In this document: positions 17,267-45,437 of the stretch, in pieces
Layout of the letters: every line of letters starts with the position of its first letter
Numbering within the stretch: the stretch's first letter is position 1
Origin: Candidatus Kapaibacterium sp.
GTDB lineage: Bacteria; Bacteroidota; Ignavibacteria; Kapaibacteriales; UBA2268
Direction of reading: 5' to 3'
DNA: 45,437 bases
Assembly (NCBI GenBank): GCA_026390675.1
Contig: JAPLFM010000187.1
Span: forward strand, 2,012 to 47,448
Notes under the pieces: generated by a model
The model's input: the letters and a program-made list of their open reading frames with translations, nothing else
The model's database searches: none
What the model was told of the DNA's origin: nothing
Translations under genes and position numbers: made by a program

Positions 17267-19987
17267 ATGAATTATAAAATGAAACTTATGAATACATTTA
17301 AAATATTAATATTGTTTTTTATTTTCCAAATTAAATTAGTTTCAAAAGAATTTGAAATTACACCCTTAAATATTAATTTTAAGGGTGTTGTTTGCAATGA
17401 TTCAAATGTTATTTCTTATGGAGATTATGGATCAATTCTATTAAGCACAAACAATGGCAATACTTGGAAACAAATAAGAGTATTTGAAAATGGTTCTATA
17501 ATTAACTGTATATATGAAAAAGATAGAATAGTTACATTTAGTTCAAATGGTGAAATTAGTATTTCTAAAAATAATGGTTTCAATTGGGAACTTATAAGTA
17601 AGATTAACGATAACATAGTTGGAGTAATTATTCATCCAAAAGGTTATGCTATAAGAAGTGAAAATAAATTAAGAATATTAAATCCAAATTTCAGTGTTTA
17701 TAGTTCAAAAGCAATCTCATCAATAAGAGGATTTTACAAAAATTATATTTGGCAATTATATCAAGATACTATTGATTTTAATCAAACAATGACAATTCAT
17801 AAAAACGATCTTGTTATTTCAATAGATTATCCAGTAAAATATGTTAAATACAATGAGAATTTGACACCAATTGATACTCTAAATGTAGATAAAGTGAATA
17901 ATTGTACAGATTGTTTAAGAAATTACTATATTTATTCTGATTCAAATTATATCTATTTTACTAATTTAGATAGTATATTTAAGTGTAGCGATTTTATAAA
18001 TTTTGATAGTTTTTTAAAATTGAATAATGGATTTTTAAGATTACAAAGTAAAAGTAATAATATTAATATTTTAGAAGGTAGAATCTGGGGAGCAGATAAC
18101 CAATTTATAAATTTTTCAAAAATTGTTAATGACAATTATAAATACGTTATTGGAAACGTTGATTTTATAATTAATTCATTAGTATTTGATTCGCGAATTT
18201 TGAAAGGATTTGACTTTAATGAAAAGTATCTATTTTTGGTTAAAGATAATAAAGTTATAATAAAAATCAACTTTATTTCTTCACAAGTTGAAATAATATC
18301 AGAATTTTCTCAAAGTTCAAAATTAATTAACCCAGACTTTTTAAAAGATAACAATTCTATTTATTATACTGCTGACAATGAAAACGGAAAAATATTTTTA
18401 GGTGCATTTAATTATAATATAATATATAAAACACATGATGAAGGTATTACTTTTCATAGGGTATGGGGTAACCATGATTACACAAAAAGCGGTTTTACAT
18501 ATTTTAAAAATTTTAATAACAAGTTAAATCTATTGACATTATATCAATTTAATAGTTCTTTTCCTTTAATTCAACCTGAAATAAGTGGATTGTATATTTC
18601 AAATGACAATGCTGAAAGCTTTAAATATAATAGAACTGAAGCATATACATTCCCAATTTTATTGAATAATAGAGCAAATTGTTATAAAAATGAATTAGGA
18701 TATGTTATCCCATATAATTTTAATTCTTTTAATAGCAAGACATTAAATTTTACACGAACATCTGATAATAATTTTAAGCCAATAAGTCTTTTTCAAGATT
18801 CAAATTATACAATATTTTATACAAACTCTAAAGATACTAATACTTTTTTATTTCAAACTTATGATGATATAGACTCGACAATTATAATAAAATACACAAA
18901 AAATAAAGGTCGAAATTGGGAGACAATAAAGGAATTTCCGTTTAAATATGATTTATTTTATAATATAGAAATTGAATTAAATGATACAAATTATTTAGCA
19001 TCTGCTTATATAAGTGAAACAGAAAAAAAGCTCGAATTCGGTATTTTGAATTTAGAAAGTAGAAGATATCAATATTTGTATACTTATAATTATTTAGATA
19101 CAAATTTAAGACATTACACTGCAATCACAAGTGATAGTAATAAAATATATTTAGCAGTAAAAGATACAATATTTGAGATATTTGATTACCTAAACCCCAA
19201 TACTTGGAAACAATTCATATTGCCTAATAATGGAAGAATTAGAAAAACTTTTAGAAAGAATAACGATAAATTCTTAGCAAGATATTCTGATTTAAATAAT
19301 GAAGATAATTTATATTGGATTAAGATTACTAATAAACCCAAACTCATCCCAGAAATACTTGCAGTTGATAATGATTTTGGAAATGTAGATATAAAAGATA
19401 AAATATCAAAAACCCAAGTTTTGAATATAGGTAATACTTCCAAAAATGCTGATTTAATAATTACAGGGTATTCAAAATTAAATCAAAGTGTTTTTTTAAC
19501 TGATTTACCAAAAGTAGATTTACAGAACCCTATAATAATTCAGCCAAATACATATTATCATTTTCAAGTACAATTCAAACCATCTGCAGTAAAAAAATAT
19601 ATTGATAGTATTGTTTTCTATTCAAATGCTGTTATTTCAGATAGTGTAACATTTCTTAAAGGTGAAGGTATAGATACTATCAAATCTTCTGTAATTGAAG
19701 ATCAAACTTATTTCTATTCATATCCTCCTTTCCCAACTCCTTCTATGTATGAGCTAAAGTCGTTAATCTATTGGGACATGAGCTATAATATAGATGATTC
19801 GGATATTGATGTATATGATATTTACGGAAATAAAGTAGCTGATAAAGATAAGATAAGTATTAACAAGCTAAATACTTATTCAGGTTATCTTTCTTGGGAT
19901 TGCTCAGGAGCTTCCACTGGTGTTTATATGATACAGATCAAACATGGAACTAATACTCATAATATTAGAGCTGTAGTGGTGAGATAA
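17267..19987 (+). CDS. L0: secreted BNR/Asp-box-repeat (Ycf48/sialidase-like propeller) protein with an ASH/choice-of-anchor-D-like Ig domain and a T9SS C-terminal sorting domain. It is a solitary paralog of L1-L3.
   Basis: 906 aa. BNR-like motifs include STNNGNTWKQ, SKNNGFNWEL, THDEGITF and TKNKGRNWET. An Ig-like segment reads DFGNVDIKDKISKTQVLNIGNTSKNADLIITG...FQVQFKP. The final 97 aa are nearly identical to the tails of L1 and L2. An alternative start is the ATG at 17279. Confidence 0.8.
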   Translation: MNYKMKLMNTFKILILFFIFQIKLVSKEFEITPLNINFKGVVCNDSNVISYGDYGSILLSTNNGNTWKQIRVFENGSIINCIYEKDRIVTFSSNGEISISKNNGFNWELISKINDNIVGVIIHPKGYAIRSENKLRILNPNFSVYSSKAISSIRGFYKNYIWQLYQDTIDFNQTMTIHKNDLVISIDYPVKYVKYNENLTPIDTLNVDKVNNCTDCLRNYYIYSDSNYIYFTNLDSIFKCSDFINFDSFLKLNNGFLRLQSKSNNINILEGRIWGADNQFINFSKIVNDNYKYVIGNVDFIINSLVFDSRILKGFDFNEKYLFLVKDNKVIIKINFISSQVEIISEFSQSSKLINPDFLKDNNSIYYTADNENGKIFLGAFNYNIIYKTHDEGITFHRVWGNHDYTKSGFTYFKNFNNKLNLLTLYQFNSSFPLIQPEISGLYISNDNAESFKYNRTEAYTFPILLNNRANCYKNELGYVIPYNFNSFNSKTLNFTRTSDNNFKPISLFQDSNYTIFYTNSKDTNTFLFQTYDDIDSTIIIKYTKNKGRNWETIKEFPFKYDLFYNIEIELNDTNYLASAYISETEKKLEFGILNLESRRYQYLYTYNYLDTNLRHYTAITSDSNKIYLAVKDTIFEIFDYLNPNTWKQFILPNNGRIRKTFRKNNDKFLARYSDLNNEDNLYWIKITNKPKLIPEILAVDNDFGNVDIKDKISKTQVLNIGNTSKNADLIITGYSKLNQSVFLTDLPKVDLQNPIIIQPNTYYHFQVQFKPSAVKKYIDSIVFYSNAVISDSVTFLKGEGIDTIKSSVIEDQTYFYSYPPFPTPSMYELKSLIYWDMSYNIDDSDIDVYDIYGNKVADKDKISINKLNTYSGYLSWDCSGASTGVYMIQIKHGTNTHNIRAVVVR

Positions 19988-28342: not shown

Positions 28343-31300
28343 CTACTTAACTACTTTCAATTCTCTAATAATTGTCTTGTTATTTTGTTTAATAATAACA
28401 AAATAGCTACCAGATCCTAAATCATTTAAATCCAAATTGATTTTGTTATTGCCAATTGTAATAAATTGTTGAAACTCTTTTATAGAATTTCCTCTAACAT
28501 CAATTATTACAAAATTTAACTTAATTTCATTATTGGAATTTATTTCTATAAGAGCATTATGATCTGCAGGGTTAGGACTTATTTGCATTATATCAATACC
28601 TTCTATCTTGTCTTCTACCATTGTACCATCCCAAATAGTAAAGGGTTTGGTTCTATCAAACTCTACTGAAGGATCATTTTCTAGAACAGCTCTTAACATT
28701 ACATTATTAGATAAAGCTGTTGGTACAACCCAAGGAACATATCCCAAAATTACATCTACGTATTTTAGTTCATCTACCCAAGAAATCCCATTGTTATAAC
28801 TTATTTGAATATCAAATCTTTTCAAATTAGTAGAATTCCATCTAACTCTATAAGTTGAACCTGCTAATACAGATTCGTTAGCAACTGGGTTTTTAAATTT
28901 TACTGTACCAGTTATAATTTTAAAGACATCTGAAATAGCTATTTCTTGACCATTGTCTATGTCAGCCATTCTGATTCGAGCATTTTTAGTATTTATTAAT
29001 GGTATATTCCATTCAACACTGGTCAAATTACCATCAACAGAGCTTAAAAGTTGGTACCATTTTACTCCATCTTCTGTAAATTCGAATTTAACCTTAGGAT
29101 AGCCTTTTGCAACAAACTGAATATATGCTTTGTTCCCACCTTTGTATATTGGTTCTGAAGCATTAGGAGAAATGATTTTAGCAAATCCAGCTTGTATTGA
29201 CCAAAACGCATCACTTCTATCTAGCTCTGCACCACTTGCCAAATCAACCAATCTTACTAAGCAGTTTGATGATGGGAAATTTGGTAATTGCATAGTAGCA
29301 GTTTTAACATTTACATTAAATGTGCCTGATGTTTGCCAATTTGTTCCACCATTTATTGTAAGATCTAATCTAACTTTTTGGCTTCCATCAGTAGTCCAGT
29401 TTACATTTATAACTCTACTTGGAAGGTATGATTCGCCACCATTTGGAGTTGTAATTTTAGCTGAGTATTGTAAAATTGGAGAAATGGTATCAAATTCGCC
29501 ATAAGGAGTTACAATCTCATTATCAACTGAATGCAAACTTGTAGAATTATGCCAATTGAATTTAATTACTTTCTCTTTACTTAAAATTTTGAATTTTAAA
29601 GTACCTAGATATGTATCTTTATAAGGTACATTGATTCCACCATTAATAAAGTTTTTGTCATAGTCAATTTCAATTGTTCTAACACCTGTTAGTTTGTTAT
29701 CTACATCATCTGTAGGAGCAGATCTAAGTTTTGAATAATAACCTAATTGTGGTTTGTTTGCAAATATAATAGTATCTATTTGATTTAAAGATTCAAATTT
29801 TACTGCAGAAGTATCATAACTTATAGCAAAAGTACTATTTGCTAATTTGAAATTTGTTGAAATATTTCTAATATAAAAATCAACTGTTGCAAAATCACCA
29901 TTTTTCTTAGTAACTGCATTAACTTTATAATTTAAAGCACCAGCTTGTATTTCATTTTCTTTTTTAGGTTTTGAAACAACATAATTTTTGAAATCGCTTT
30001 CAATAACACCCTTTGGTTCAGCATATAATGACGAAACTTTTCCAAAATTTCTATCAACTATAGTTCTATCATCTGCATTAACAAATCCATCTCCAGTTAC
30101 ATCTGAGCTAGGATTGTTTGTTCCATCATCTACCCTAACTTGTACTCTATCAGCTGCATTTATTTGACCATCTTGGTTTACATCTCCACCAACCATTGCA
30201 GCAATAGCAATAGTTTTGGAACCAGCTGGACCATTATTAAATATCAATCCAGTAGTATTATAATTAGGATCTGAGACTGTAGTTTTAGCATCACCCTTGG
30301 CATTAAAATATTTCAAACTAATAGCGTCATCAGTTTCAAATTTCATTATATTATCTTCTACACCGTCCCAAGTTGCAAAATCCCAACCAGATTCTATAGC
30401 CCAAGTAGATTTGTTATCACCATCATATTTGAAAGAAACAGGGAATCTGCTCATGATTGGCAAATGGTTTTGTTGCTCAACCATAACCCAATACTTACCA
30501 TCACTAATATCTGTTATAAGGTAATTTACATTTGCAAATTTTTTATTACCAGCATTTCTATTTAAAGGGTCTCGTTCTTCATACTTAAATCTTGAAAGTT
30601 CTGAAAGTAATCTTTTGCCCCTCACACCTGCATTTTCTTCAAATAAAGTAATTCTAATTGCTCCTTGAGGGTACAAAGTTCCAATATCTCTCATATTGAA
30701 ACTATTTCGTAAGCCATCGTGATGACCTTCTAATAATACTCTAATTGTAAAATTATCAATTGGAGTAATTGTAAACAAAGGACTTTCAGATACTAAAGGT
30801 TGTTTTACATTCTCAATTGTATAGCTTAAGTTCAGTCTTAATCTAGCGTTAGTCAAAGCAGGGTTTAATGGACCTTGGTCATTTGTAATACCATCATTAT
30901 TAACATCTGGGTTTGCTAAAGAAGCATTTAATTTTAATGCATATACTATATCACTGGTTCCACCCTTAAATACAAAGTTTGTACTATCGGGAATTGTAGA
31001 AGAATTAGTCGAATTGCCAAGATAGTATGTAGAGCCAATGTATTTGTATAATTGACTTAGACCACCTCCACCTCTTGATGAATATTCTAATGATGGTGCC
31101 ACTCCAAAACTACCATTGCTTATTGCAAGTCCATCATAATCAAATCCAACCCACCTAACTTTAACATCTGTACTAGTATTCGAAACTTTTTGTCTAAATA
31201 CAGGCTCTACTAGTTTAATAAATGGAATAGCAGCAATATATGATATTGTATCAATTCCAAACCTTGCATATATGCTAGGATTGTTTATTGCAGGAACTGT

Positions 31301-34267: not shown

Positions 34268-34467
34268 AGTTATGTTTGTTTTATATATGTCATACACCAC
34301 TTATATCGGCACTATTGACAAATACTTTAATAATTTTAATTAATTTAAACTGCACAATATTAGACAATTGTTACAAGTTCTCTTTAATATATTACATAGA
34401 TTATGCCAAAAAAATATTACTTACTTTAAATACTTGATTTTACAACTTGAGATACAAAAGCACCTTT

Positions 34468-34897
34468 CCGTCATTCTGAACGAAGTGAAGAATCAAGTGT
34501 TATCTTTGTCCTCCGCTGGCGTGAGGTGTCAGTCTATGACTGACGGAGGTGGTTCTTGCATTCGCATTCGTAGAGACAGGATTCAATCCTGTCTTAAAAC
34601 ATTTAGTAGCACAGACCTTCTTGTCTGTTTCTTATTTATATTCTGTATTCGTAGGGGCCAAAGCTTGCTCAACCCTTGTTAATTCTTGCATTTGTAGAGA
34701 CAGGATTCAATCCTGTCTCAAAACATGTAGTAGCACAGACATTCTTGTCTGTTTCTTATCTATATCCTATTTTCGTAGGGGTTGAGCTTGCTCAACCCTT
34801 TTTATTATCCCATAAATACAGGGTAGAGCAAGCTCTACCCCTACAACCTCAAATTCATCCGATCAGGCAATCGCCTGTGACTTTAAGTTATCGGATG
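34468..34897. repeat. Cluster of REP-like palindromic units, including a ~130-bp tandem duplication (34553-34675 and 34683-34798)
   Basis: Hairpin-forming units:
- cgtcattctgaacgaagtgaagaatc.
- cctccg...gtcagtctatgactgac...ggagg.
- agacaggattcaatcctgtct (twice).
- acagac(c/a)ttcttgtctgt (twice).
- gggttgagcttgctcaaccc.
- gggtagagcaagctctaccc.
- catccgat..caggcaatcgcctg..atcggatg. Confidence 0.85.
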
Positions 34898-35045
34898 AAT
34901 TCTCCAACCGTCTTTTAAAGCAGGTCAAATCTAGATTTAGTTAAACAAATTGCTAGCTATTTTGTTAAAAACTTTATTATGAATTATGAGTGTTTTTTTA
35001 TAGATTGTAAAAGAGTAAGTATCGAATAAGTAAAAATAAATTTAA

Positions 35046-36008
35046 ATGAATAGCAGTAAAATCAGAGTTGCTTTAATAGATGATGGGTTATTTGTAAACG
35101 AATCTTTTGAAACTATGTTAGGTTTACAATTTCCTATAGTTGAAGTTGTTTGTAAAGCTGAGTCTGTGTATGAAGGAATTATGACTATTAAGGCTTTTAA
35201 ACCAGAACTAGTATTTCTTGATATAAAATATCCTGATGGTACTGGTTTTGATATTTTGAAGAATACAAAAGATGTTCCTTTTAAAACAATTTTAGTTACA
35301 GATTATAATGAATATGCAAAAGAAGCTTTTGAGCATTCAGTTTTACATTATATTAAAAAACCTTATAGGGTTGAAGATATTTCAAATTGTTTAGAATTAT
35401 ATGCAAACGATAAGGAAAACAATAAATTTAAAAAAACTAATGACAATGTAACTACTGATTATCAAAATTTTAAAGATTTAGATTATAAAGATATTGATTT
35501 AAATAAACTTAGTTTTATAGATCTTGAAAAAGAATTTATAGAAAGAAGAAAAAATGTAACCACTGTATTTGAAAATGAAACATTGTTATATAAATATGAA
35601 ATGCTTAATCTAAATAGGAAAATAGCTATTTCAACTCAGAATTACAATAACATTAAAAACGAGATTGAAAGTGATAAAATAGTAATAAATACAAAAGGAG
35701 AAGCTATTGAAATTAATAAATCAGATATAGCATATTGTGTTGGTGATGGTAACTATACAGATTTTGTTTTATCTGATTCTAAAACTCATACTGTTTCAAA
35801 AAAATTAAAATCTATTGTAAAATTAATCAACTCAAATAAATTCATTAGAATTAGTAAAAAACACCTCGTGAATTTTGATTTTGTGAAAGAACATAAAATT
35901 GGAATGATTCATAAGGTAATTATGAAGTGTAATACAGTCTTACAGATAGGCAGAATCTACAAAGAAGAGTTTATTCAAAAGTATAATATCTTCAAATCTA
36001 AAAAGTAA
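35046..36008 (+). CDS. Orphan response regulator of the LytR/AlgR family (REC + ~95-aa Asn/Lys-rich linker + LytTR DNA-binding domain)
   Basis: REC domain: IRVALIDDG, VFLDIKYPDGTGFDIL, ILVTDY, IKKPY. LytTR-like tail: IAYCVGDGNYTDFVLSDSKTHTVSKKLKSIVKLINSNKFIRISKKHLVNFDFV. No histidine kinase gene is adjacent. Confidence 0.85.
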   Translation: MNSSKIRVALIDDGLFVNESFETMLGLQFPIVEVVCKAESVYEGIMTIKAFKPELVFLDIKYPDGTGFDILKNTKDVPFKTILVTDYNEYAKEAFEHSVLHYIKKPYRVEDISNCLELYANDKENNKFKKTNDNVTTDYQNFKDLDYKDIDLNKLSFIDLEKEFIERRKNVTTVFENETLLYKYEMLNLNRKIAISTQNYNNIKNEIESDKIVINTKGEAIEINKSDIAYCVGDGNYTDFVLSDSKTHTVSKKLKSIVKLINSNKFIRISKKHLVNFDFVKEHKIGMIHKVIMKCNTVLQIGRIYKEEFIQKYNIFKSKK

Positions 36009-36097
36009 TCAAAATTCCTTTCAATGTATTTTGTGAAATAGTTATGTATTTTGTGAAATACCTATTTTTTTATTTGGTATTTTCATTTATGTTTGAA
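35971..36097 (+). repeat. Element A, copy 1: a 127-bp segment (last 38 nt of the LytTR gene plus 89 nt downstream), duplicated at 42681-42807
   Basis: Reading both copies base by base, I found no mismatch (offset 6710 nt). Confidence 0.95.
36024..36060 (+). promoter_or_regulatory. Pair of 17-nt direct repeats (ATGTATTTTGTGAAATA x2, 20-nt period): candidate LytTR-regulator binding site
   Basis: Identical 17-mers lie at 36024-36040 and 36044-36060, about two helical turns apart and immediately downstream of the LytTR gene. A TAnnTTTG-like motif (TATGTTTG, 36088-36095) sits at the very end of the duplicated block. Function is inferred. Confidence 0.4.
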
Positions 36098-36156: not shown

Positions 36157-36257
36157 ACATAAAAAAAGAAGTCAAAGCAAAATGCTATGACTTCAATACT
36201 CGATAAACAAAGATTCATACCGTCAAAAGATCAATCTTTGCTTGCAGGTAACTGCAA
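36157..36257 (+). repeat. Element B, copy 1: conserved inter-cassette non-coding element with three hairpins
   Basis: Hairpin 1: gaagtca-a-agca-aaa-tgct-a-tgacttc (36168-36194), preceded by an A7 run. Hairpin 2: caaagatt-N17-aatctttg (36208-36240). Hairpin 3: ttgcag-gtaa-ctgcaa (36242-36257). Homologous copies lie at 39441-39542 and 42808-42880. Confidence 0.85.
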
Positions 36258-36349
36258 AAATAATATTTTATATGCAATATACCAAATAAAATCAAAATGT
36301 ATATTGCTTTCTTTAATGTTCAATGAGCAAAGTGCTTAAAGAACTAAAA

Positions 36350-36380: not shown

Positions 36381-36998
36381 ATGAAAAAAATAATATTAAG
36401 TGCATTGCTATATGTAATGCTAATATCTGTGAATTGTGATAATTTGGTGGCAGATTGTCCACCAAATTACATCCAACAAATAATTTTGTACTCAATACCT
36501 GGAACAAATTGTGTAGCAAAAGTAGAAGTTTGTTATCAATGTACACCAACAAATAGTGGTAATGTAAATATTGGTGCGATTGAAATATATGATTGCGACG
36601 ACAGACAAAATGCTTGGGGTGTTCTTAACGCAGATAATAGAAGTGCATTAATAAAATATGCTATTTTACATATTAATTATGGCAATTGCACTCCACCTCC
36701 TTGTGATCAAGGTGTTAAACAGTTTGTAGTAAGATCTAGTGCTTGTAACTATTATCAAAATGTTGTTGTAAATGGTGTAAAAATAGTTTCAAAATTGATT
36801 CCATGTAGTTCAGATGGCGCTTATTGTGAAAAAACTTATAATTTATGTTGGGATGGTACAACTATGTTAGTTACTTTAACAGGTTCTTATTTAATAGGTA
36901 TACCTAATTGTTCAACTATTCTACCGGAAATTGGTTCTTATCCATATAATTGGGATCAAAACTGGGAAACATATTGCTTTACAGCTGGCTGCAATTAA
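36381..36998 (+). CDS. S1: secreted cysteine-rich protein (14 Cys in the predicted mature part), unknown family
   Basis: 205 aa with signal peptide MKKIILSALLYVMLIS. Cys positions are colinear with S2 and S3, with motifs CPxx(Y/F), CxxC, CxxxPC, PCxxxGAYCExxYxxC(W/V)D and a C-terminal CFTxGCN. Confidence 0.85.
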   Translation: MKKIILSALLYVMLISVNCDNLVADCPPNYIQQIILYSIPGTNCVAKVEVCYQCTPTNSGNVNIGAIEIYDCDDRQNAWGVLNADNRSALIKYAILHINYGNCTPPPCDQGVKQFVVRSSACNYYQNVVVNGVKIVSKLIPCSSDGAYCEKTYNLCWDGTTMLVTLTGSYLIGIPNCSTILPEIGSYPYNWDQNWETYCFTAGCN

Positions 36999-37014
36999 TA
37001 AATAGGATTATATT

Positions 37015-39402
37015 ATGAAAAAATTAGTTTTAGCATTTCTTATTTTAACAAGTGTTGCTATTTCATCACAAAATTTACCTTTTAAAATGGAAAGATTAAA
37101 TACTGATTTTAAGGGAGTAATTTATTTCAATAACACCATTTTTGCCTATGGCGATTATGGTGTTATTCTTTCAACTAAAGATTTTGGAAAAAATTGGAAA
37201 CAAAATGATATTGATGAAGATTCAGATATAAAAAATATAATTGAAATAAATGGTAGGTTAATAGGTATAGCTGGTTCGAATATTATTGAATATGATAATA
37301 TCAGAGATGTTTGGAATAAATATTTTATTAAAGATTCAATTATGTACAAAGATATTGCTTATGCAAATAGTCAAATTTTTTTAATTTCTGATAATAAAAT
37401 AAAGTCTTTTGATTTAAATTTTAATTTAATCATCGAAGATTTTATTAAAGATAACTCAAAATTTAAAGCTATTGAAACTAAAGATAATGAATTAAATATT
37501 CTAACTACAAATCTAAAATTGATAAAATATGATACTCAGAATAATTTCATTAAAGATTCAATAAATCTAAATAGTAAAATAAATTTTATAAGTACAGATA
37601 ATTTAGAATTTAAGATCATAGATAATGATTATTACTTAGGTTTAATTTCTGGATTACATAAAAGTATTGATGGTGGTTTTAATTGGAATAAAATTGATAC
37701 TATTTATAATACCTTTGAAGTAAAAAATAAAATAATTTATGAAATTTCTTCATTAAATAATCTTAAAACTCCTTCAGAAATTAATTTTAATAAATTTGAA
37801 CAAAATGTTAAAAAGAATATAAATCAAAATTATAAAAATAAAGATAGTACACGTTTAGTTTTCTCTTATGACTTCAAAGGATTTATTTTTATTTCAAATG
37901 ATACTATAGTTTCTGTTGGAGCAGATAAATTAATTGCTATGTCTATTGATGGAGGAAAAGACTGGGAAGTCATTTCTTATTTCAATACTTATTATGCTCA
38001 GCATGGCAATCAATTGCATATTGTAAACGATAGTTTGATATTTGCTTTAAATAGAAATTTTTGTATTAATAAATCTACTAATGGTGGTTTGACGTGGCTT
38101 CCCCAATATTTTAAATATAGGAATTCAAGTGATTATAAAATATTTAACGCTAACTACAATAATAATTGGGGTGAAAACAATACTTATTTTGATAATAAAG
38201 GAAATGGGATTTGTGTTTTAACTTCACGAGATTATATACAAGGGCAAGACTCAATAAATTTTATGAGAACCTTTGACTTTGGAAATACATACGAATATGG
38301 ATATAATAAAGGATTGGATATTGGAGATGGATTAATTGGAGCAAATTTTGTGAAATTTGATTCTAACCTAATTCTGCTCAGCTCAGACTATAATAGATTT
38401 GCACCTTCATATCAGAACACAAACTATATTAGATTGTCTAAATTTGATAATAAATTAAATTTTATTGAAAATATAAAAATTAATTATCAAAAAATACTTA
38501 AAATAATTTCTGATGAAAGTCAAAATTCATTTTTCTTAATAAAAGATAGTACTGGTATTAATTTATGTGAATATACAAGCGGAATAGACACATTTAGAAT
38601 ACTTTATAGTAAATTAAACTTTTTAGAAAATCAACAAATTAAAAGAATTCGATTATTAAATAATAATAAAAGAAAATATCTATTGTATTTCACTGATTCT
38701 ACATCAGGAGGGGAAGTTTTTGATGTACAAAGTGGTAAGTTTATAATAACAAAAAGAACTGTAATTGATACTTTGTTTTTTTATAATTTAGATACTAAAG
38801 AAACAATTGTTTCCTATGTAACTACTGATACAAACTCTCATTTGAGGAATTCTATTTATGGAGAGTCTTTTTTTAAAATAGATGATTCTTGTTTTCTTAG
38901 CACTTCTGATGGTATCATATTTAATGATAATATTTTTATTGATTGTAAAAATTGGGAGGAAATAAATGTTTCTACCTATTCTTTTTGGGGCATATTAAAA
39001 GGTAATAAATATATATTTTGTGTAAATAGTAATAAGGATTTTAGTGAAAGAAAATATGGAGGTGTTTTTAGGTTGTCTTTTTTAGAAAGTAAATCTTCAA
39101 TTGAAACTATTGAAGACCAAACATATTTCTATTCATATCCTCCATATCCTTTACCAGCAAGAAATGAGTTGAAATCATTAATTTATTGGGATATGAGTTA
39201 TAATATAGATGATTCTGATATTGGAGTTTATGATATTTATGGAAATAAAATAGCAAATAGAGAAAAGATAAGTATAAACAAATTAAATTCTTATTCAGGT
39301 TATCTTTCTTGGGATTGTACTGGGGTTGGTACTGGAGTTTATATAATACAGATTAAGCATGGCACTAATACACATAATATTAGAGCTATGGTGGTGCGGT
39401 AG
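37015..39402 (+). CDS. L1: secreted BNR/Asp-box-repeat propeller-like protein with a T9SS C-terminal sorting domain
   Basis: 795 aa, starting 16 nt after the S1 stop. It has a signal peptide and the BNR-like motifs STKDFGKNWKQ, KSIDGGFNWNK, MSIDGGKDWEV, KSTNGGLTWLP and RTFDFGNTYEYG. The tail EDQTYFYSYPPYPLP...GVYIIQIKHGTNTHNIRAMVVR is shared with L0 and L2. Confidence 0.85.
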   Translation: MKKLVLAFLILTSVAISSQNLPFKMERLNTDFKGVIYFNNTIFAYGDYGVILSTKDFGKNWKQNDIDEDSDIKNIIEINGRLIGIAGSNIIEYDNIRDVWNKYFIKDSIMYKDIAYANSQIFLISDNKIKSFDLNFNLIIEDFIKDNSKFKAIETKDNELNILTTNLKLIKYDTQNNFIKDSINLNSKINFISTDNLEFKIIDNDYYLGLISGLHKSIDGGFNWNKIDTIYNTFEVKNKIIYEISSLNNLKTPSEINFNKFEQNVKKNINQNYKNKDSTRLVFSYDFKGFIFISNDTIVSVGADKLIAMSIDGGKDWEVISYFNTYYAQHGNQLHIVNDSLIFALNRNFCINKSTNGGLTWLPQYFKYRNSSDYKIFNANYNNNWGENNTYFDNKGNGICVLTSRDYIQGQDSINFMRTFDFGNTYEYGYNKGLDIGDGLIGANFVKFDSNLILLSSDYNRFAPSYQNTNYIRLSKFDNKLNFIENIKINYQKILKIISDESQNSFFLIKDSTGINLCEYTSGIDTFRILYSKLNFLENQQIKRIRLLNNNKRKYLLYFTDSTSGGEVFDVQSGKFIITKRTVIDTLFFYNLDTKETIVSYVTTDTNSHLRNSIYGESFFKIDDSCFLSTSDGIIFNDNIFIDCKNWEEINVSTYSFWGILKGNKYIFCVNSNKDFSERKYGGVFRLSFLESKSSIETIEDQTYFYSYPPYPLPARNELKSLIYWDMSYNIDDSDIGVYDIYGNKIANREKISINKLNSYSGYLSWDCTGVGTGVYIIQIKHGTNTHNIRAMVVR

Positions 39403-39440
39403 TGAGGGGCATTTTGATATAATAGGGAAATATGACACCA

Positions 39441-39542
39441 ACATAAAAAAAGAAGTCAAAGCAAAATGCTCTGACTTCCAAACTGAAAAAAACAAAGATT
39501 GAGACCGACAAAAGTTTAATCTTTGCTTGCAGGTAACTGCAA
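39441..39542 (+). repeat. Element B, copy 2 (hairpins at 39452-39478, 39493-39525 and 39527-39542)
   Basis: It has the same three hairpins as copy 1. The stems are conserved while the 17-nt loop of hairpin 2 differs. There is no element A in front of this copy. Confidence 0.85.
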
Positions 39543-39621
39543 AAATAAGTTTTTTTAATCAAATAATAAGCTATATAAATGTTTTTGTATAGTATTTTTA
39601 AACAATTTTTGGAGTTTTTTT

Positions 39622-40254
39622 ATGAAAAAGATATTTTTAAGTGCATTGCTTTTTGTAATGCTAATCTCAATGAGTTATGAGTTGTCATACGCTTCTTGTC
39701 CAAGTGGATATTACTCAGGATTTGTTTATAAAAACATCTCAGGCTGTAACTTTAAAGTTACTTATTGTTATAAATGTGATCCAACAGGAGTAACTGATAT
39801 ACAATTAGATACTATTACTATTCCATTAGGTTGTAGCCTTTCTTTAGCACTAAATAATTTACAAGCAATAAGTGAAGCAGCAGTATATAACATTATTTCA
39901 ACTGGAGGCTGTACTACCCAACCTTGTGGCACTATACCACCTACAGTATATTCTATCAAAGTATCGACAAATATATGCAATAGAGTAGTCAATACTGTTT
40001 ATTTTAATGGAGTAGATTCGCTACATCTAAACACATTACTAATTCCTTGTGACCCAGGAGGGGCTTATTGTGAAAGACGATATGCAGTCTGTGTGGATAA
40101 TAACCAAACTCCACCTGTTTATTATACTAATTATTTGGGTAGTACTCCTTATGGTTCTCCTTCTTGTACAGCTGGTGTACCTACTTTACCACCTTCAGGT
40201 AAATCTATGGATGAATATTGGGATACTGGATGTTTTACAACTGGTTGTAATTAA
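39622..40254 (+). CDS. S2: secreted cysteine-rich protein, paralog of S1 and S3
   Basis: 210 aa. The signal peptide MKKIFLSALLFVMLISMSY is nearly identical to that of S1 and S3 at the nucleotide level. It has 14 colinear Cys and ends in CFTTGCN. Confidence 0.85.
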   Translation: MKKIFLSALLFVMLISMSYELSYASCPSGYYSGFVYKNISGCNFKVTYCYKCDPTGVTDIQLDTITIPLGCSLSLALNNLQAISEAAVYNIISTGGCTTQPCGTIPPTVYSIKVSTNICNRVVNTVYFNGVDSLHLNTLLIPCDPGGAYCERRYAVCVDNNQTPPVYYTNYLGSTPYGSPSCTAGVPTLPPSGKSMDEYWDTGCFTTGCN

Positions 40255-40269
40255 TTATAGGAAAGTATT

Positions 40270-42639
40270 ATGAAAAAGTTAGTTTTAGCCTTTCTTATTT
40301 TAGCAAGCATTGCTATTAATGCACAAACCTTACCTTTCAAAATGGAAAGGATGAATACTAATTTTAATAGTATTAGTTGTTTTAATAACACCATATTTGT
40401 CGGAGGCAAATATGGTGTTATTCTTTCGTCAAAAGACTTTGGTAAAAGTTGGAAAAAACAATTTATTGATGAAAACTTAACTATATATAAGTTTTTAAAA
40501 GTTGAAGATAGATTATTAGGTTTAGCATCAAATAAACTAATTGAGTTTGATAAATTAAGTGAAAATTGGAAAGTAGTTAATATGATTGATTCTACTCCAA
40601 TTCTAAACATTGAGTATTCAAATAATAATTTAATTGTATTATATCAAAACAAAGTAAAATTGTATGATAAAAATTTGAATTTGATAGAAGAAGATTTAAT
40701 AAAATCAGATTCAAGTTTTGTAAATTGTTCTTTAGATAAAAGTTTATTATATGTGATTTTAAAAGATTATATATTAATTAAATATGATTTGAATAATAAA
40801 AACATTACCCAAACTAATTTGAAAGATAGACTTAATTGTGATGCTTGCAAAGTATCAAAATTTGAAATCAAAGATAGTATTATTGTTTTTAAAACAAACA
40901 AAGGAATGTATATTAGTAAAAATAAAGGAACAGATTTCTTTGTAATAGGAAACACACTTACAACTTTTGAAATATTCAATAATGATATTTATGAGATTGA
41001 AAATAGTATTAAACCTTTAATTACAAAAGCTATTAGTACTATAGACTTTAATAAAATAACAAATAACCTAAGAAACAAACTATCAATTATAAATGAAGAT
41101 AGTTTGAGATTAAGTCATAGTTATCAATTTGAAGATTTGTGTTTTATGAATAAAGATATTATAATCGGAGTAGGAAATAATAATTTAATTTCTATTTCAT
41201 ATAATGGTGGAGTTACTTGGAAAGTGATATCTTATTTAGATAATAATCCAATTGAACAAAATAGATATGCAAAAATGTATTATGTTAACGATAGCTTAAT
41301 GTATGTGATGGGTGAAAATTTTGTTATATATAAGTCTCTAGATGCTGGCAATACATGGTTACCTCAATATTATACTTCAAATAAAATATACTTGGATTCA
41401 TATAATGATCTATTCCCAAATCAACACAATCTTTATTTTGATGAAAAAGGCTATGGAATTATTATTAACAATTCTTATGCAGTTAGAGATACATTTAAGA
41501 ATAAAAATAATATTAATTATATGATTACAAAAGACTTTGGAAATACTTATGAATATGGGTATAGTAGGAATATAGATAACTTAGGAAATATAGGGAATTA
41601 TTTTATTCCATCGGATAATAATATAACAATGTTTTGTACAAGTTCTTTTAAATTTCAAGGAGTTGATACATTAACTACATATTTAATATATTATATATTT
41701 GATAAAAATATGAAATATCTTTCAAAAAAAGTAGAAATTGGCAGACTATTAGATAAAGTAATTTTTGATGAATATAAAAATTGTTATATAGTTTTAAAAG
41801 AACAAAATGAGAAAAATATTTATAAATTTTCTCAATTAAATGGGAATTTAGAATTAATAAGAAAAAACATTGATTATTCTGATTTTGGTACTCAAATAAT
41901 AAACAATAAAGACAAATCACTTTCATTAATGTATTATAAGGAAATAGCTTCAGGTGGTCCAATAATAGTAAATAAGGAAGTTGTTATTACCCCAAGAAAG
42001 CTCATTGACACCTTATTCAACTTTAATTTAAGCGATAATACTAAGAAAGTTGAATATATTAATACGGACACTTTATTTAATATTTTTGATACTGGGTATG
42101 GAAATACATTTCATATAGTTGATAATTCATTTTATATTAATTGTGTAAATGGATTAATTAGAAAAAAAGATATAAATAATAGTAATAGTTGGGAAAAAAT
42201 ACCTATTCCAGGTTATATTTTATGTAGTGTATTTTACGGAGATAAATATAATTTATGCTATAATAAAGGTGATGCTTATGGGTCTGTTCAAGCTGGACTT
42301 TTCAAAATTATTCCAAATAATCCTATAACAACTGTCGAAATTCAAACAGAAGATTTTACATACTTTTACTCCTACCCACCTTTCCCAACACCTTCGATAA
42401 ATGTTGTGATGAGTTTGATTTATTGGGATATGAGTTATAATATAGATGATTCTGACATTGGAGTTTATGATATTTACGGAAATAAAGTAGCTGATAGAGA
42501 TAAGATAAGTATAAATAAACTAAATTCATATTCAGGTTATCTTACTTGGGATTGCTCAGGTATTGCTACTGGTGTTTATATGATACAAATCAAACATGGA
42601 ACTAATACTAATAATATCAGAGCTATGGTGGTGAGGTAA
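40270..42639 (+). CDS. L2: secreted BNR/Asp-box-repeat propeller-like protein with a T9SS C-terminal sorting domain
   Basis: 789 aa, starting 15 nt after the S2 stop. The N-terminal ~65 aa (MKKLVLAFLILASIAINAQTLPFKMERMNTNF...YGVILSSKDFGKSWKKQ) and the C-terminal ~97 aa closely match L1. The core is diverged. Confidence 0.85.
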   Translation: MKKLVLAFLILASIAINAQTLPFKMERMNTNFNSISCFNNTIFVGGKYGVILSSKDFGKSWKKQFIDENLTIYKFLKVEDRLLGLASNKLIEFDKLSENWKVVNMIDSTPILNIEYSNNNLIVLYQNKVKLYDKNLNLIEEDLIKSDSSFVNCSLDKSLLYVILKDYILIKYDLNNKNITQTNLKDRLNCDACKVSKFEIKDSIIVFKTNKGMYISKNKGTDFFVIGNTLTTFEIFNNDIYEIENSIKPLITKAISTIDFNKITNNLRNKLSIINEDSLRLSHSYQFEDLCFMNKDIIIGVGNNNLISISYNGGVTWKVISYLDNNPIEQNRYAKMYYVNDSLMYVMGENFVIYKSLDAGNTWLPQYYTSNKIYLDSYNDLFPNQHNLYFDEKGYGIIINNSYAVRDTFKNKNNINYMITKDFGNTYEYGYSRNIDNLGNIGNYFIPSDNNITMFCTSSFKFQGVDTLTTYLIYYIFDKNMKYLSKKVEIGRLLDKVIFDEYKNCYIVLKEQNEKNIYKFSQLNGNLELIRKNIDYSDFGTQIINNKDKSLSLMYYKEIASGGPIIVNKEVVITPRKLIDTLFNFNLSDNTKKVEYINTDTLFNIFDTGYGNTFHIVDNSFYINCVNGLIRKKDINNSNSWEKIPIPGYILCSVFYGDKYNLCYNKGDAYGSVQAGLFKIIPNNPITTVEIQTEDFTYFYSYPPFPTPSINVVMSLIYWDMSYNIDDSDIGVYDIYGNKVADRDKISINKLNSYSGYLTWDCSGIATGVYMIQIKHGTNTNNIRAMVVR

Positions 42640-42680
42640 TTGTGAATTACGAATTATGAATTATAAACAAACAAAAAAAC

Positions 42681-42807
42681 TTATTCAAAAGTATAATATC
42701 TTCAAATCTAAAAAGTAATCAAAATTCCTTTCAATGTATTTTGTGAAATAGTTATGTATTTTGTGAAATACCTATTTTTTTATTTGGTATTTTCATTTAT
42801 GTTTGAA
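42681..42807 (+). repeat. Element A, copy 2 (includes a 38-nt fragment of the 3' end of the LytTR gene)
   Basis: Exact duplicate of 35971-36097. Here it is fused directly to a 5'-truncated element B. Confidence 0.95.
42734..42770 (+). promoter_or_regulatory. Second copy of the 17-nt direct-repeat pair (candidate LytTR box), upstream of cassette 3
   Basis: ATGTATTTTGTGAAATA at 42734-42750 and 42754-42770, within element A copy 2. Confidence 0.4.
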
Positions 42808-42880
42808 CTCTGACTTCAATACTCGAAAAACAAAGATTATGACCCTACAAAGTACAATCTTTGCTTGCAGGTAACTGCAA
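42808..42880 (+). repeat. Element B, copy 3 (left arm of hairpin 1 deleted; hairpins 2 and 3 intact)
   Basis: Only the right arm ctgacttc of hairpin 1 remains. Hairpin 2 is caaagatt (42831-38) N17 aatctttg (42856-63). Hairpin 3 is ttgcag gtaa ctgcaa (42865-80). Homology with copy 1 continues down to the S3 start codon. Confidence 0.85.
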
Positions 42881-42970
42881 AAATAAGTATTTATACGTAA
42901 TATACCAAATTAAATCAAAATGTATATTACTTTCTCTAAAGCTCTATAAGTTTAGAGCTTAAACAACTAA

Positions 42971-42978
42971 TATTTTTG
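42971..42978 (+). promoter_or_regulatory. Candidate -7 promoter element (TATTTTTG) proximal to S3
   Basis: It is the same octamer, with the same spacing to the ATG, as before S1. Confidence 0.3.
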
Positions 42979-43002
42979 TAAAAAAATTAAGGAAACTAAA
43001 AA

Positions 43003-43623
43003 ATGAAGAAAATAATATTAAGTGCATTGCTATTTGTAATGCTAATTTCGATGAGTTATCAAAGTGCAGAGGCTACATGTCCGACAGGATTTACTGAATA
43101 TACTCAAACAATTACTTATGGTGGATGTGAATGGACAGTAATATTTTGTGTGAAGTGTGGTGTCACTACTGGTTACAATGAAGTTTGGATTCAACAATTT
43201 TCAATTCAAAATTCATCTTGCTATACTTACTTCACGGCACATTCACAAGAAGTTATAGATGCAATAGCAGCAAATGTAACTTTATTGACTGCCGATATTT
43301 GTGGAATTAAACCACCTTGTGGTAGTGGAATAAGATATACTTATGTTTACCTTGCAACATGTTGGCAAAATATGCATGTTGTTAATAGTACTGAAGATTA
43401 TTTTGTACAAAGATTTTGTAGCGATATTGAATTTTGTAAGTCAACATATTCGACTTGTTGGGATTATTCAGTAACGCCTGCTACACCTGTTTTGACTTTA
43501 ATAGGCAAACAGCATTACGGTACTCCACAATGTGCACGAAATAATAATAAACCAAGTGATTTTGATAATCCAACTCCTCCAAATAATTGGTCTTCTTGTT
43601 GGGAAGAATTTCTTTGCAAATAA
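43003..43623 (+). CDS. S3: secreted cysteine-rich protein, the most diverged paralog
   Basis: 206 aa with signal peptide MKKIILSALLFVMLISMSYQSAEA. It has 14 colinear Cys and a C-terminal CWEEFLCK instead of CFTxGCN. Confidence 0.85.
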   Translation: MKKIILSALLFVMLISMSYQSAEATCPTGFTEYTQTITYGGCEWTVIFCVKCGVTTGYNEVWIQQFSIQNSSCYTYFTAHSQEVIDAIAANVTLLTADICGIKPPCGSGIRYTYVYLATCWQNMHVVNSTEDYFVQRFCSDIEFCKSTYSTCWDYSVTPATPVLTLIGKQHYGTPQCARNNNKPSDFDNPTPPNNWSSCWEEFLCK

Positions 43624-43643: not shown

Positions 43644-45437
43644 ATGAAAAAATCAACTTTATTAATTGCATTACTATTATTGAATTTTAGTTTAATATTT
43701 TCCCAAGCAAATAGTGACAATTTGCTTTGGGAAAATGATATTAAAAGTATTGATTTTAGTGGTACTTTGGCTATTGGAAATAATGTATTTGCTTATGGTA
43801 CTAAAGGGATGTACTTTTATTCAAGTGATAAAGGAGTGGGCTGGGAGCAGAAAAAAGTTGAGAATGCTTCCAGTATTATAAAACTCCTAAATATTGATAA
43901 CAAAATAATTGGATTTACAGCAAGCGGTCAGCTTCTGCAAAGTGAAGACTTTGGTAAAACTTGGCAAATAAGTAAGTTAGAAAATGTTGAACTAATTTGT
44001 TTTGTTGATACTTACTTAAGTAATATATATATAAGAACAAATAAATCAATTAATTTATATAATAATAAATTAGAATTAATTTCTTCATATAAAAATGATG
44101 CTTTAAATGATTTTTCAATTTATGAAATTGAATCAGATGTTTCATCAATTTCTTCTTGGCATAATATTATTTTTCATAAAAATGAATTATATTTTTATAT
44201 TGCTAATAATCCAAAGCTTTATAAAATAAATATAAATAAATTTCTAAATAATGAAATTAAGATTGATACTATTACTCCTTGTGATACTTGTCAAACAGGT
44301 AATATTGGTGATTTAAGCAAATATAACAACACAATTACTTTTTATTTAAGTAGATTTAATGACAAGTATGAAAGTCGAGATTACAAGTACAATTTAGATT
44401 CTAATAGTATTTCTGAAAATTCATACGATGAAAAGAGAAAATATAGTGGAAAATATTTTAATTTAAATGGAATAAATTATAGATTTTATGATTTTGCACC
44501 ATATTGGATATCTAACTACCCAACTAATTATTTTAAATTAGGTGTGGATATTTTAAACACTTCTGATAGTTTGACAAATAAAGGTAATTCAGATTTTATT
44601 GGAGTAAATCGTTCTCCAGTAATTAGTGATGTATGTCAAGTATCAGATAGTACTTTTATAGCTGTTTCTGGATATAAGTTTTTAATAATTTCAAATGATA
44701 AATGCAAGACTTGGAAAGTAATTAGCTCAAGAGGAGATTTGGCTCAAACTAAACCTGATTTGATAAGTAAAAATTATAGATATTTTGCTAATAATTTAAC
44801 AAATATATCTTCTTCAATTGATAATGGATTGACTTATAAATTTATTGAAAGAGATTTGAATGAATCAGAATTAGTTAAGTTTTATAAAAATTCACAGACA
44901 AAAATTACAGCCAAATATTTAGATACAAATGGGACTTTTATTTATTTAATGACAAGTAATTTGAGCAATTACAATAATATTGCAGTTAGCAAAGACTATG
45001 GCAAAACAGCCACTTATTTTAAAAATAATTCAGTTGCATATTCAACTTCTGATGTAATCAATTTTAGCAAAATAGATAATAAACTTATTTACTTGTTTAA
45101 TTATCAAACAATCAATAAAAATTATTTCATATACTGTAATTTTGATTTGAATATGAATATTACAAGAAGAATAGTTGATTCTATTAATATTGCAAAATTT
45201 GTTTCATTTAAAAATTTGAATGAGGGATTTATGATTACTGCAATTCGTAATCCAACTCCAACAAAAATTGAAGCATTAACTTGGAATGCTAAGGATTCGA
45301 ATTGGATTAGATCTAAATCTTTAGATTTAGTTTATACAGATTTAAAAGTATTTTCTTATGGTAAAAATAAAGATAGTGCTATAGTTTGCGTTATTAATTT
45401 TAATGCTGGAATAAGTAACAATAAGATTTATATTTAT
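43644..45437 (+). CDS. L3: secreted BNR-repeat propeller-like protein, 3' end outside the window
   Basis: It is absent from the ORF track because no stop codon is reached. My translation from the ATG at 43644 (20 nt after the S3 stop) is open for 598 codons to the window end: MKKSTLLIALLLLNFSLIFSQANSDNLLWENDIKSIDFSG...YSSDKGVGWEQ...QSEDFGKTWQI...ISNDKCKTWKV...VSKDYGKTATYF. Confidence 0.8.
   Translation, partial: MKKSTLLIALLLLNFSLIFSQANSDNLLWENDIKSIDFSGTLAIGNNVFAYGTKGMYFYSSDKGVGWEQKKVENASSIIKLLNIDNKIIGFTASGQLLQSEDFGKTWQISKLENVELICFVDTYLSNIYIRTNKSINLYNNKLELISSYKNDALNDFSIYEIESDVSSISSWHNIIFHKNELYFYIANNPKLYKININKFLNNEIKIDTITPCDTCQTGNIGDLSKYNNTITFYLSRFNDKYESRDYKYNLDSNSISENSYDEKRKYSGKYFNLNGINYRFYDFAPYWISNYPTNYFKLGVDILNTSDSLTNKGNSDFIGVNRSPVISDVCQVSDSTFIAVSGYKFLIISNDKCKTWKVISSRGDLAQTKPDLISKNYRYFANNLTNISSSIDNGLTYKFIERDLNESELVKFYKNSQTKITAKYLDTNGTFIYLMTSNLSNYNNIAVSKDYGKTATYFKNNSVAYSTSDVINFSKIDNKLIYLFNYQTINKNYFIYCNFDLNMNITRRIVDSINIAKFVSFKNLNEGFMITAIRNPTPTKIEALTWNAKDSNWIRSKSLDLVYTDLKVFSYGKNKDSAIVCVINFNAGISNNKIYIY

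Follow-up and report, generated by a model that had tools for sequence, protein, structure and literature searches.

Exported 14-cysteine proteins encoded upstream of BNR β-propeller proteins in a Candidatus Kapaibacterium contig: a family with a probable partner role

Type IX secretion system (T9SS) proteins that carry a type B C-terminal domain are paired with adjacent accessory genes of the PorP/SprF-like kind (PMC9143113). Here, we describe a locus of related organisation in a 45,437-nucleotide (nt) stretch of Candidatus Kapaibacterium sp. DNA (GenBank assembly GCA_026390675.1, contig JAPLFM010000187.1, positions 2,012 to 47,448 of the forward strand), which was analysed over its whole length and is further referred to as the window. 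It contains three genes for exported cysteine-rich proteins, S1, S2 and S3, each followed by a gene for a larger protein with β-propeller signatures, B1, B2 and B3, correspondingly (Table 1). By analogy, T9SS cargo encoded together with its cognate accessory gene is the nearest known arrangement to these S–B pairs. In both, a surface cargo (in the case of B, a candidate one) stands beside its own partner gene, and the pairs have been duplicated and have co-diverged within one genome. Unlike the PorP/SprF-like proteins, S is predicted to be soluble and cysteine-rich, with about 180 residues and no outer-membrane β-barrel, and its gene is located upstream of the cargo gene. The candidate cargo differs as well, since the Por_Secre_tail model that matches B (just below the cutoff in B2) is presumably of type A. 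No similarity of S to PorP/SprF-like partners, either in sequence or in fold, was found in the family and Foldseek searches.

Three further systems deserve comparison. In the AprA/AprI-Inh and lipase/Lif systems, a secreted enzyme and its periplasmic inhibitor or private foldase are encoded in one operon. Here too, a small Sec-exported protein is paired with a larger one, which would pass the outer membrane through a secretion system of its own; however, neither has homology to S, no enzymatic domain was identified in B, and seven disulfides would be unusual for inhibitors or chaperones of this type. The Vps10 domain of sortilin consists of a β-propeller followed by the cysteine-rich ‘10CC’ module, which recalls the association of a BNR/Asp-box propeller with a small cysteine-rich module, and faint Sortilin-Vps10 Pfam matches occur on some B proteins. 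Nevertheless, the 14 cysteines of S are on a polypeptide of its own, and no sortilin chain was found among the 50 listed fold matches of S2 or among the PDB sequence matches. PorZ of Porphyromonas gingivalis is a T9SS surface component of 776 residues, composed of two β-propellers and a C-terminal β-sandwich domain of the T9SS type (PMC5121618). The likeness of B to PorZ consists in the rank of this double propeller in the Foldseek search, and the presence of four divergent B copies in the window is a difference. We know of no S-like neighbour of PorZ. PorZ-like proteins are characterised by two seven-bladed propellers, a retained C-terminal domain and the binding of A-LPS.

The downstream partner gene is the strongest functional clue to S. 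In all 15 cases with a readable downstream neighbour, the gene next to S was of the B type, on the same strand and 5–112 nt away (three cases in the window and, in our numbering of homologs, P0005, P0018 with its neighbour, P0011, P0010, P0045, P0100, P0008, P0002, P0027, P0044 and P0015). These partners are 756–910 amino acids (aa) long or are fragments at contig ends, and their Pfam matches, where on record, are to BNR, Sortilin, PSII_BNR or Por_Secre_tail. The pairing is also kept in distant single-copy modules that lie amid unrelated housekeeping genes. Because of this strict operon linkage, the parallel duplication of both genes and the similar rates at which S and B evolve, we consider S to be the cognate exported partner of B, either as a subunit, a chaperone or an inhibitor, with a probability of about 55%. 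In the P0018 and P0010 contigs, which derive from one metagenome, a 256-aa open reading frame (ORF) without Pfam match follows the S–B pair or pairs; it may represent a third component of the module in that lineage. The corresponding site of the locus studied here would fall past the window end.

The B proteins combine BNR/Asp-box and Ycf48-like matches with a putative T9SS sorting tail. In B2, PSII_BNR scored above its cutoff and Por_Secre_tail reached 21.7 bits, just under the cutoff of 27 bits; among the other partners, the match to the latter model carries no mark in loci L011 and L012 and is weak in L005 and L013. Eight aligned B proteins (three from the window and five from other loci) are mutually homologous. 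Four of them, namely B1, B2 and those of L002 and L005, extend to the C-terminus, and their last ~90 residues are conserved. The C-terminal domains of B1 and B2 share 82% of their amino acids at a proportion of synonymous differences (pS) of 0.56, which indicates constraint at the protein level; recent gene conversion as the source of this similarity was therefore rejected. A word-indexed homolog search with B2 returned B2 and B1 alone. The AlphaFold model of B2, built from window sequences alone, was poor, with a predicted local distance difference test (pLDDT) value of 51, and its top Foldseek matches, at a template-modelling (TM) score of ~0.25, were the sensor ectodomains BT4673/BT4663 and PorZ (5m11, second-ranked). 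The B profile gave no sequence match to PorZ in the PDB. With such values, the likeness of B to PorZ or BT4663 is a lead only. The fourth B-family gene of the window, B4, sits 107 nt downstream of a gene for an M28 peptidase/PD40/PDZ protein.

All three S proteins have 14 cysteines past residue 24 in an unchanged order, so that both the ORFs and the colinear cysteines of the original prediction were confirmed by ORF read-out and alignment; S1 has an additional Cys19 within the signal region. Cysteine accounts for 6.7–7.3% of residues in the S proteins versus a mean of 0.64% in the remaining 23 ORFs found in the window. Residues 1–16 are near-identical in the alignment of S1–S3 and Ala24 is invariant; S2 and S3 are, respectively, 37 and 32% identical to S1, and the mature parts share 30–37% identity with each other. 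This homology is not due to chance, since the hidden Markov model of the family, run against the six-frame translation of the window, matched S1–S3 alone, with E = 1e-46 to 1e-57. The short cysteine motifs proposed beforehand hold in their order and pattern, but were drawn slightly too strictly in several places: the first motif of S1 is CPPNY, without Gly, the ‘GxC’ motif reads GxxC in S1 and GC in S2, and S3 has one residue more within C...PC and likewise within C...C at the C-terminus. The S proteins terminate in C-x4-5-C plus one residue.

The family is large. Word-indexed searches returned about 20 close relatives of S, of which the three organism-named ones come from metagenome-assembled genomes of Kapabacteria, Ignavibacteria or Bacteroidota, and a profile run against 1.84 billion representatives (of clusters defined at 50% identity) yielded 772 clusters at E < 1e-3 and 451 at E < 1e-10. 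The best 150 listed matches are 151–249 aa long and have one matched stretch each. In the family alignment of 147 representatives, most of which are just 22–34% identical to S2, 12 of the 14 cysteine positions are strongly conserved (five invariant and seven further ones at a level of at least 93%), whereas C52 and C97 (S2 numbering throughout) are kept in 61 and 80%, respectively. All 29 representatives without C97 lack C52 too, and both of those without C42 lack C71, as expected of disulfide partners. Together with an even number of cysteines in 121 of the 147 representatives, these paired losses and the conserved positions support the disulfide scaffold suggested earlier, and the mature S protein of about 180 residues is most likely locked by seven disulfides.

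As far as profiles and the predicted structure go, S has no known relative, either as a protein family or as a fold, and the initial statement that it belongs to no named family held in the Pfam, NCBIfam, PADLOC, PHROGs, PDB-sequence, PDB-fold and BFVD-fold comparisons. S1–S3 gave no match better than E = 0.04 against Pfam-A, NCBIfam, PADLOC and PHROGs; among the 147 relatives, 146 were without a Pfam match and one had a match at chance level; the family profile reached a best E of 0.09 against PDB sequences, with no matching chain. The AlphaFold2 model of S2, based on 22 sequences, has a mean pLDDT of 83.2 and a predicted TM score (pTM) of 0.77 and consists of two helices and long antiparallel strands. 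Foldseek found no structural neighbour of this model in the PDB (best E = 0.017, TM 0.11) or in BFVD (best E = 0.02, TM 0.15). No description of the family was found in the literature. We rejected a phage or plasmid origin of S, which did not occur in the collections of plasmids and phages, and its membership in a defence system, for which there was no PADLOC match; no toxin domain was found in S or B that would make them a toxin/immunity pair.

Export of S was assessed by rules, which ask for a basic N-terminus, then a hydrophobic core, and small residues at both −3 and −1. S1–S3 start with MKK, followed by a 14-residue hydrophobic core and a predicted cleavage site LVA|D, SYA|S or AEA|T. A hydrophobic h-region precedes the first conserved cysteine in all 147 representatives, and in 100 of them, as well as in S1–S3, the (−3,−1) rule places the cleavage one residue before this cysteine, with the site pattern A-x-A | x-C-P-x-G-[YFW]. 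Both the export and the cleavage near Ala24 that had been proposed are thus borne out by features typical of signal peptidase I (SPase I). The commonest predicted new N-terminal residue is Gln (39/147), which fits the ‘Q-rule’ reported for SPase I substrates of Bacteroidetes (PMC5837995). A lipoprotein nature of S, with processing by SPase II, was rejected, as a lipobox-like motif ([LVI][ASTVI][GAS]C, where the hydrophobic core ends) occurs in one of 147 representatives. In S2, S3 and most relatives, and less so in S1, the core is separated from the cysteine by residues that are polar or charged. The T9SS C-terminal sorting domain (Por_Secre_tail/TIGR04183) had no match in S1–S3. In view of the SPase I features and the lack of a T9SS domain, S is taken as a Sec/SPase I substrate that would be delivered to the periplasm.

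The mature parts of S had been thought to be under diversifying selection, which the orthologs do not support. Comparisons at the DNA level were made for two ortholog pairs. S3 and P0008 are 88% identical in the mature part, with a ratio of nonsynonymous to synonymous rates (dN/dS) of 0.22 and a highest 30-codon window of 0.47; for S2 and P0002, the corresponding values are 83%, 0.20 and 0.53. The adjacent B genes, with nonsynonymous/synonymous proportions (pN/pS) of 0.05/0.18 and 0.08/0.36, evolve between orthologs at rates similar to those of S. Comparisons among S paralogs are uninformative on selection because of the saturation of synonymous sites (pS 0.54–0.60). Judged by these substitution patterns, the paralogs share so few residues owing to old duplication and not to a current arms race. 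Given an ortholog dN/dS of about 0.2 in S and the like behaviour of the B genes, the three S–B pairs are old, specialised duplicates under purifying selection.

The signal peptide of S follows a course of its own. S2 and P0002, with the mature identity given above, are only 46% identical in the signal, and S3 and P0014 share 59% of the mature part and 25% of the signal. Conversely, among the 144 pairs whose signals are at least 70% identical, the median identity of the mature parts is 26% and equals the family background. Seven recurrent signal-type groups, with 18, 9, 7, 5, 4, 3 and 3 members, were recognised, and within them the signal identity is 0.60–0.77 and the mature identity is 0.25–0.32. 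Between S3 and P0008, synonymous changes affect 9 of 14 sites in the signal versus 27 of 111 in the mature part (p = 0.004), and between S2 and P0002, nonsynonymous changes affect 24 of 58 versus 41 of 429 (p = 5e-9). The signal peptide of B, unlike that of S, is 83% identical in the ortholog, in line with the rest of B. The S signal peptide is thus conserved within the lineage and not within the orthologous group. The most economical explanation would be that the 5′-ends of S genes evolve in a concerted manner, or are replaced by recombination, within the lineage. The near-identity of the S1–S3 signals at the nucleotide level, also pointed out originally, is real and forms part of a larger leader and signal block (60-nt windows); synonymous differences in the signal codons themselves (pS 0.34–0.48 on ~14 sites) are not clearly below saturation. 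Since these differences are not low, either any such conversion was not recent or selection at the protein level contributes, and recent gene conversion within the signal codons was not demonstrated. Scans of genome and metagenome contigs with peptide patterns seeded by the lineage-specific signal peptide alone found nothing.

A conserved signal, a divergent mature part and a fixed cysteine framework are also known from conotoxin superfamilies and from the variable lipoproteins of Mycoplasma and Borrelia. The S paralogs resemble them in the stronger conservation of the signal than of the mature part, in their fixed cysteines and in a conserved 5′ untranslated region. They differ by purifying selection (ω ~0.2), by their length of ~180 residues, by not being lipoproteins and by their tie to a partner gene.

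Table 1 Coordinates of the S and B genes and of associated upstream elements (positions in the window unless a contig is named)
Feature	Position	Strand	Remarks
S1, exported cysteine-rich protein, 205 aa	36381..36998	+	Signal peptide codons 36381-36452
S2, exported cysteine-rich protein, 210 aa	39622..40254	+	Signal peptide codons 39622-39693; AlphaFold2-modelled
S3, exported cysteine-rich protein, 206 aa	43003..43623	+	Signal peptide codons 43003-43074
B1, 795-aa BNR/Asp-box β-propeller with putative T9SS C-terminal sorting domain	37015..39402	+	Starts 16 nt after S1
B2, 789 aa, B1 paralog (40% identical)	40270..42639	+	Starts 15 nt after S2
B3, third B paralog, runs off the window end	43644..45437	+	Starts 20 nt after S3
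B4, fourth B-family gene, 906 aa, no S gene ahead	17267..19987	+	hhalign E = 8.5e-68 versus B profile
Response regulator, receiver and LytTR DNA-binding domains, 320 aa	35046..36008	+	Immediately upstream of S1
127-nt block, first copy (S1 side)	35971..36097	+	Boxes ATGTATTTTGTGAAATA 36024-36040 and 36044-36060; TATGTTTG 36088-36095
127-nt block, second copy, upstream of S3	42681..42807	+	Boxes 42734-42750 and 42754-42770
Leader element before S1	36157..36262	Undecided	Hairpins 36168-36194, 36208-36240 and 36242-36257
Leader element before S2	39441..39547	Undecided	Minus-strand first hairpin with T7 run scores as intrinsic terminator (39479-39451)
Leader element before S3	42808..42885	Undecided	First hairpin cut at the 127-nt repeat junction
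Leader element of related contig L008	535-640		

The conserved block extends into the DNA upstream of the S genes. A leader of ~100 nt is conserved ahead of S1, S2 and S3, with a 25-nt core that occurs at these three sites of the window alone. Its consensus folds into three hairpins, the middle one with an invariant stem and a variable loop; no covariation was seen in the consensus, because the stems are invariant. The element folds well on both strands (z-scores −4 to −6), and its minus strand resembles a small RNA gene, with a TATTTTTG box, a hairpin and a 13-bp terminator with a T7 run. No Rfam family matched the leader at gathering score, a permissive search gave chance-level results only, and exact DNA-pattern scans of public collections with the leader motif found nothing. 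In contigs L008 and L009, the S3 ortholog is preceded by the proximal leader of S2 type, which indicates that leader types are exchanged among paralogs.

In addition, a 127-nt block is present in two copies that are 100% identical and include the final 38 nt of the LytTR regulator gene. This suggests that a regulatory block was recently duplicated or converted between cassettes that are ~30% identical in their coding parts. The block contains two perfect 17-nt repeats, the ATGTATTTTGTGAAATA boxes, with a 20-bp period, located 27 nt upstream of the TATGTTTG box; the paired boxes were found ahead of S1 and S3 only. The TATGTTTG box fits the Bacteroidetes −7 consensus TAnnTTTG, which we assume to be used in this lineage. 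LytTR-regulated promoters carry paired direct repeats, spaced by about two helical turns, on their upstream side, and control of the S–B modules by the LytTR regulator through the paired boxes is plausible. No histidine kinase gene adjoins the regulator gene in the window; in the P0005 contig, the S–B pair is preceded by a LytTR regulator gene that has genes for a histidine kinase and an 84-aa ORF directly upstream of it.

Taken together, S would be the smaller member of a conserved module of two genes, in which B, a BNR double β-propeller of ~790 aa, is a candidate T9SS cargo. Each S would bind its own B once both are in the periplasm and act on it as an accessory subunit, as a private chaperone or holding factor, or as an inhibitor; the data do not discriminate between these roles. 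The three S–B pairs of the window are specialised modules, each under purifying selection, which would owe their shared signal and leader to concerted evolution or recombinational 5′ exchange within the lineage and would form a common regulatory unit, with LytTR-type boxes before S1 and S3 and a structured leader before all three. Several points weigh against this interpretation. Contact between S and B is putative, and co-inherited neighbours would diverge together regardless of binding. S lacks a T9SS C-terminal domain with which it could follow B to the surface. B4 has no S partner; S is thus not needed by every B and is no general requirement of the family. The model of B2 is poor, and the nature of B is deduced from weak BNR and C-terminal-domain matches. 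No S–B fusion was present among the best 150 listed family matches. The LytTR link was seen in just two of the loci examined, and the LytTR sites studied so far have a period of 21 bp versus 20 bp here. The most specific version, in which S is a new disulfide-locked fold dedicated to a PorZ-like double-propeller T9SS cargo and its signal and leader are kept uniform in each genome by recombination, is put forward only tentatively, as something that may well turn out otherwise.

Other interpretations keep some of this evidence and part with the rest. S could be a periplasmic inhibitor or ‘immunity’ protein that holds a hydrolytic or glycan-binding B inactive until its secretion, in the manner of the inhibitors whose genes adjoin those of secreted proteases or of the periplasmic proteins that give immunity to exported effectors: the S gene stands upstream of B in tight coupling, a Sec signal without a T9SS domain leads one to expect a periplasmic location, each B has a divergent S of its own, and tandem arrays of divergent pairs exist. 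However, B has no detectable catalytic or toxin domain, selection is purifying and not of an arms-race kind, and B4 exists without S; we regard such a function as unlikely. The original prediction spoke of binding, inhibitor or toxin-like proteins under diversifying selection; S would then be a free-standing binder, inhibitor or toxin, independent of B, whose disulfide scaffold displays loops that diversify against an external target. Export, the occurrence of several divergent copies per genome and the low identity of paralogs around fixed cysteines would be in line with it, but the low dN/dS of orthologs along all 30-codon windows, the strict synteny with B even for single-copy modules in unrelated housekeeping neighbourhoods, and the failure of the searches run to relate S to any family or fold of toxins or inhibitors make it a rather improbable account.

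Two further models rely on the upstream DNA. The array might be a surface-variation system, in which the leader and signal block serves as a recombination or expression cassette for switching between S–B pairs, as in the variable lipoprotein families of Mycoplasma and Borrelia. The perfect 127-nt duplication, the swap of the proximal leader type between orthologs, a signal peptide that tracks the lineage and not the orthologous group, and the different array order in the related contig L008 agree with this scheme, for which we nevertheless see little room, given that no invertase or recombinase gene and no promoter-flanking inverted repeats were seen, that S1–S3 are all complete and have a leader each, and that single-copy modules are common elsewhere. 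Alternatively, S could be a bacteriocin-like antimicrobial under quorum-sensing control, with B as an accessory protein or receptor. The LytTR regulator that adjoins S1, and the kinase, 84-aa ORF and regulator ahead of S in the P0005 contig, brought this to mind, as the combination of a kinase, a small ORF and a LytTR protein resembles the peptide-pheromone loci of Gram-positive bacteria. Yet S carries a Sec signal and not a double-glycine leader, there is no dedicated transporter or immunity gene, most loci are without any regulator, and S is missing from the plasmid and phage collections, which leaves this the least credible of the alternatives and very improbable.

If S is indeed the cognate partner of B, as we favour, it would be a candidate cargo-specific accessory protein. 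In the more tentative version, with a new fold dedicated to PorZ-like double propellers, T9SS biology would have an accessory layer that had gone unrecognised in Ignavibacteria, Kapabacteria and related Bacteroidota, and all S–B modules of a genome would share one export and regulatory handle. The strict operon linkage allows a testable function to be proposed for hundreds of unannotated ‘hypothetical proteins’ from the poorly studied Ignavibacteria, Kapabacteria and Bacteroidota. For structural biology, S is a probable new seven-disulfide fold, and for evolutionary studies, it may offer a clean bacterial case of concerted evolution of signal and leader inside a lineage, with mature proteins that remain orthologous and under purifying selection.

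Some other features of the window are worth mentioning. The AT-rich intergenic region at 34460-34900 contains GC-rich hairpin repeats similar to repetitive extragenic palindromic (REP) elements, together with terminator-like stems; this cluster includes two 94-nt copies (34564-34657 and 34688-34781) and did not match any Rfam family. A homologous cluster is located upstream of the S3 ortholog in contig L008 (60-340). A TonB-dependent receptor appears to be split into a plug ORF (24103-24837) and a barrel ORF (25113-26228), ~275 nt apart, which may be a frameshift or a pseudogene. Finally, a protein of 1985 aa with Laminin_G_3 domains, a dockerin-like segment and a clear T9SS sorting tail is encoded on the minus strand (28343-34300), and an FN3-rich protein of 1163 aa is encoded at 806-4297; both show a heavy investment of this organism in large surface proteins.

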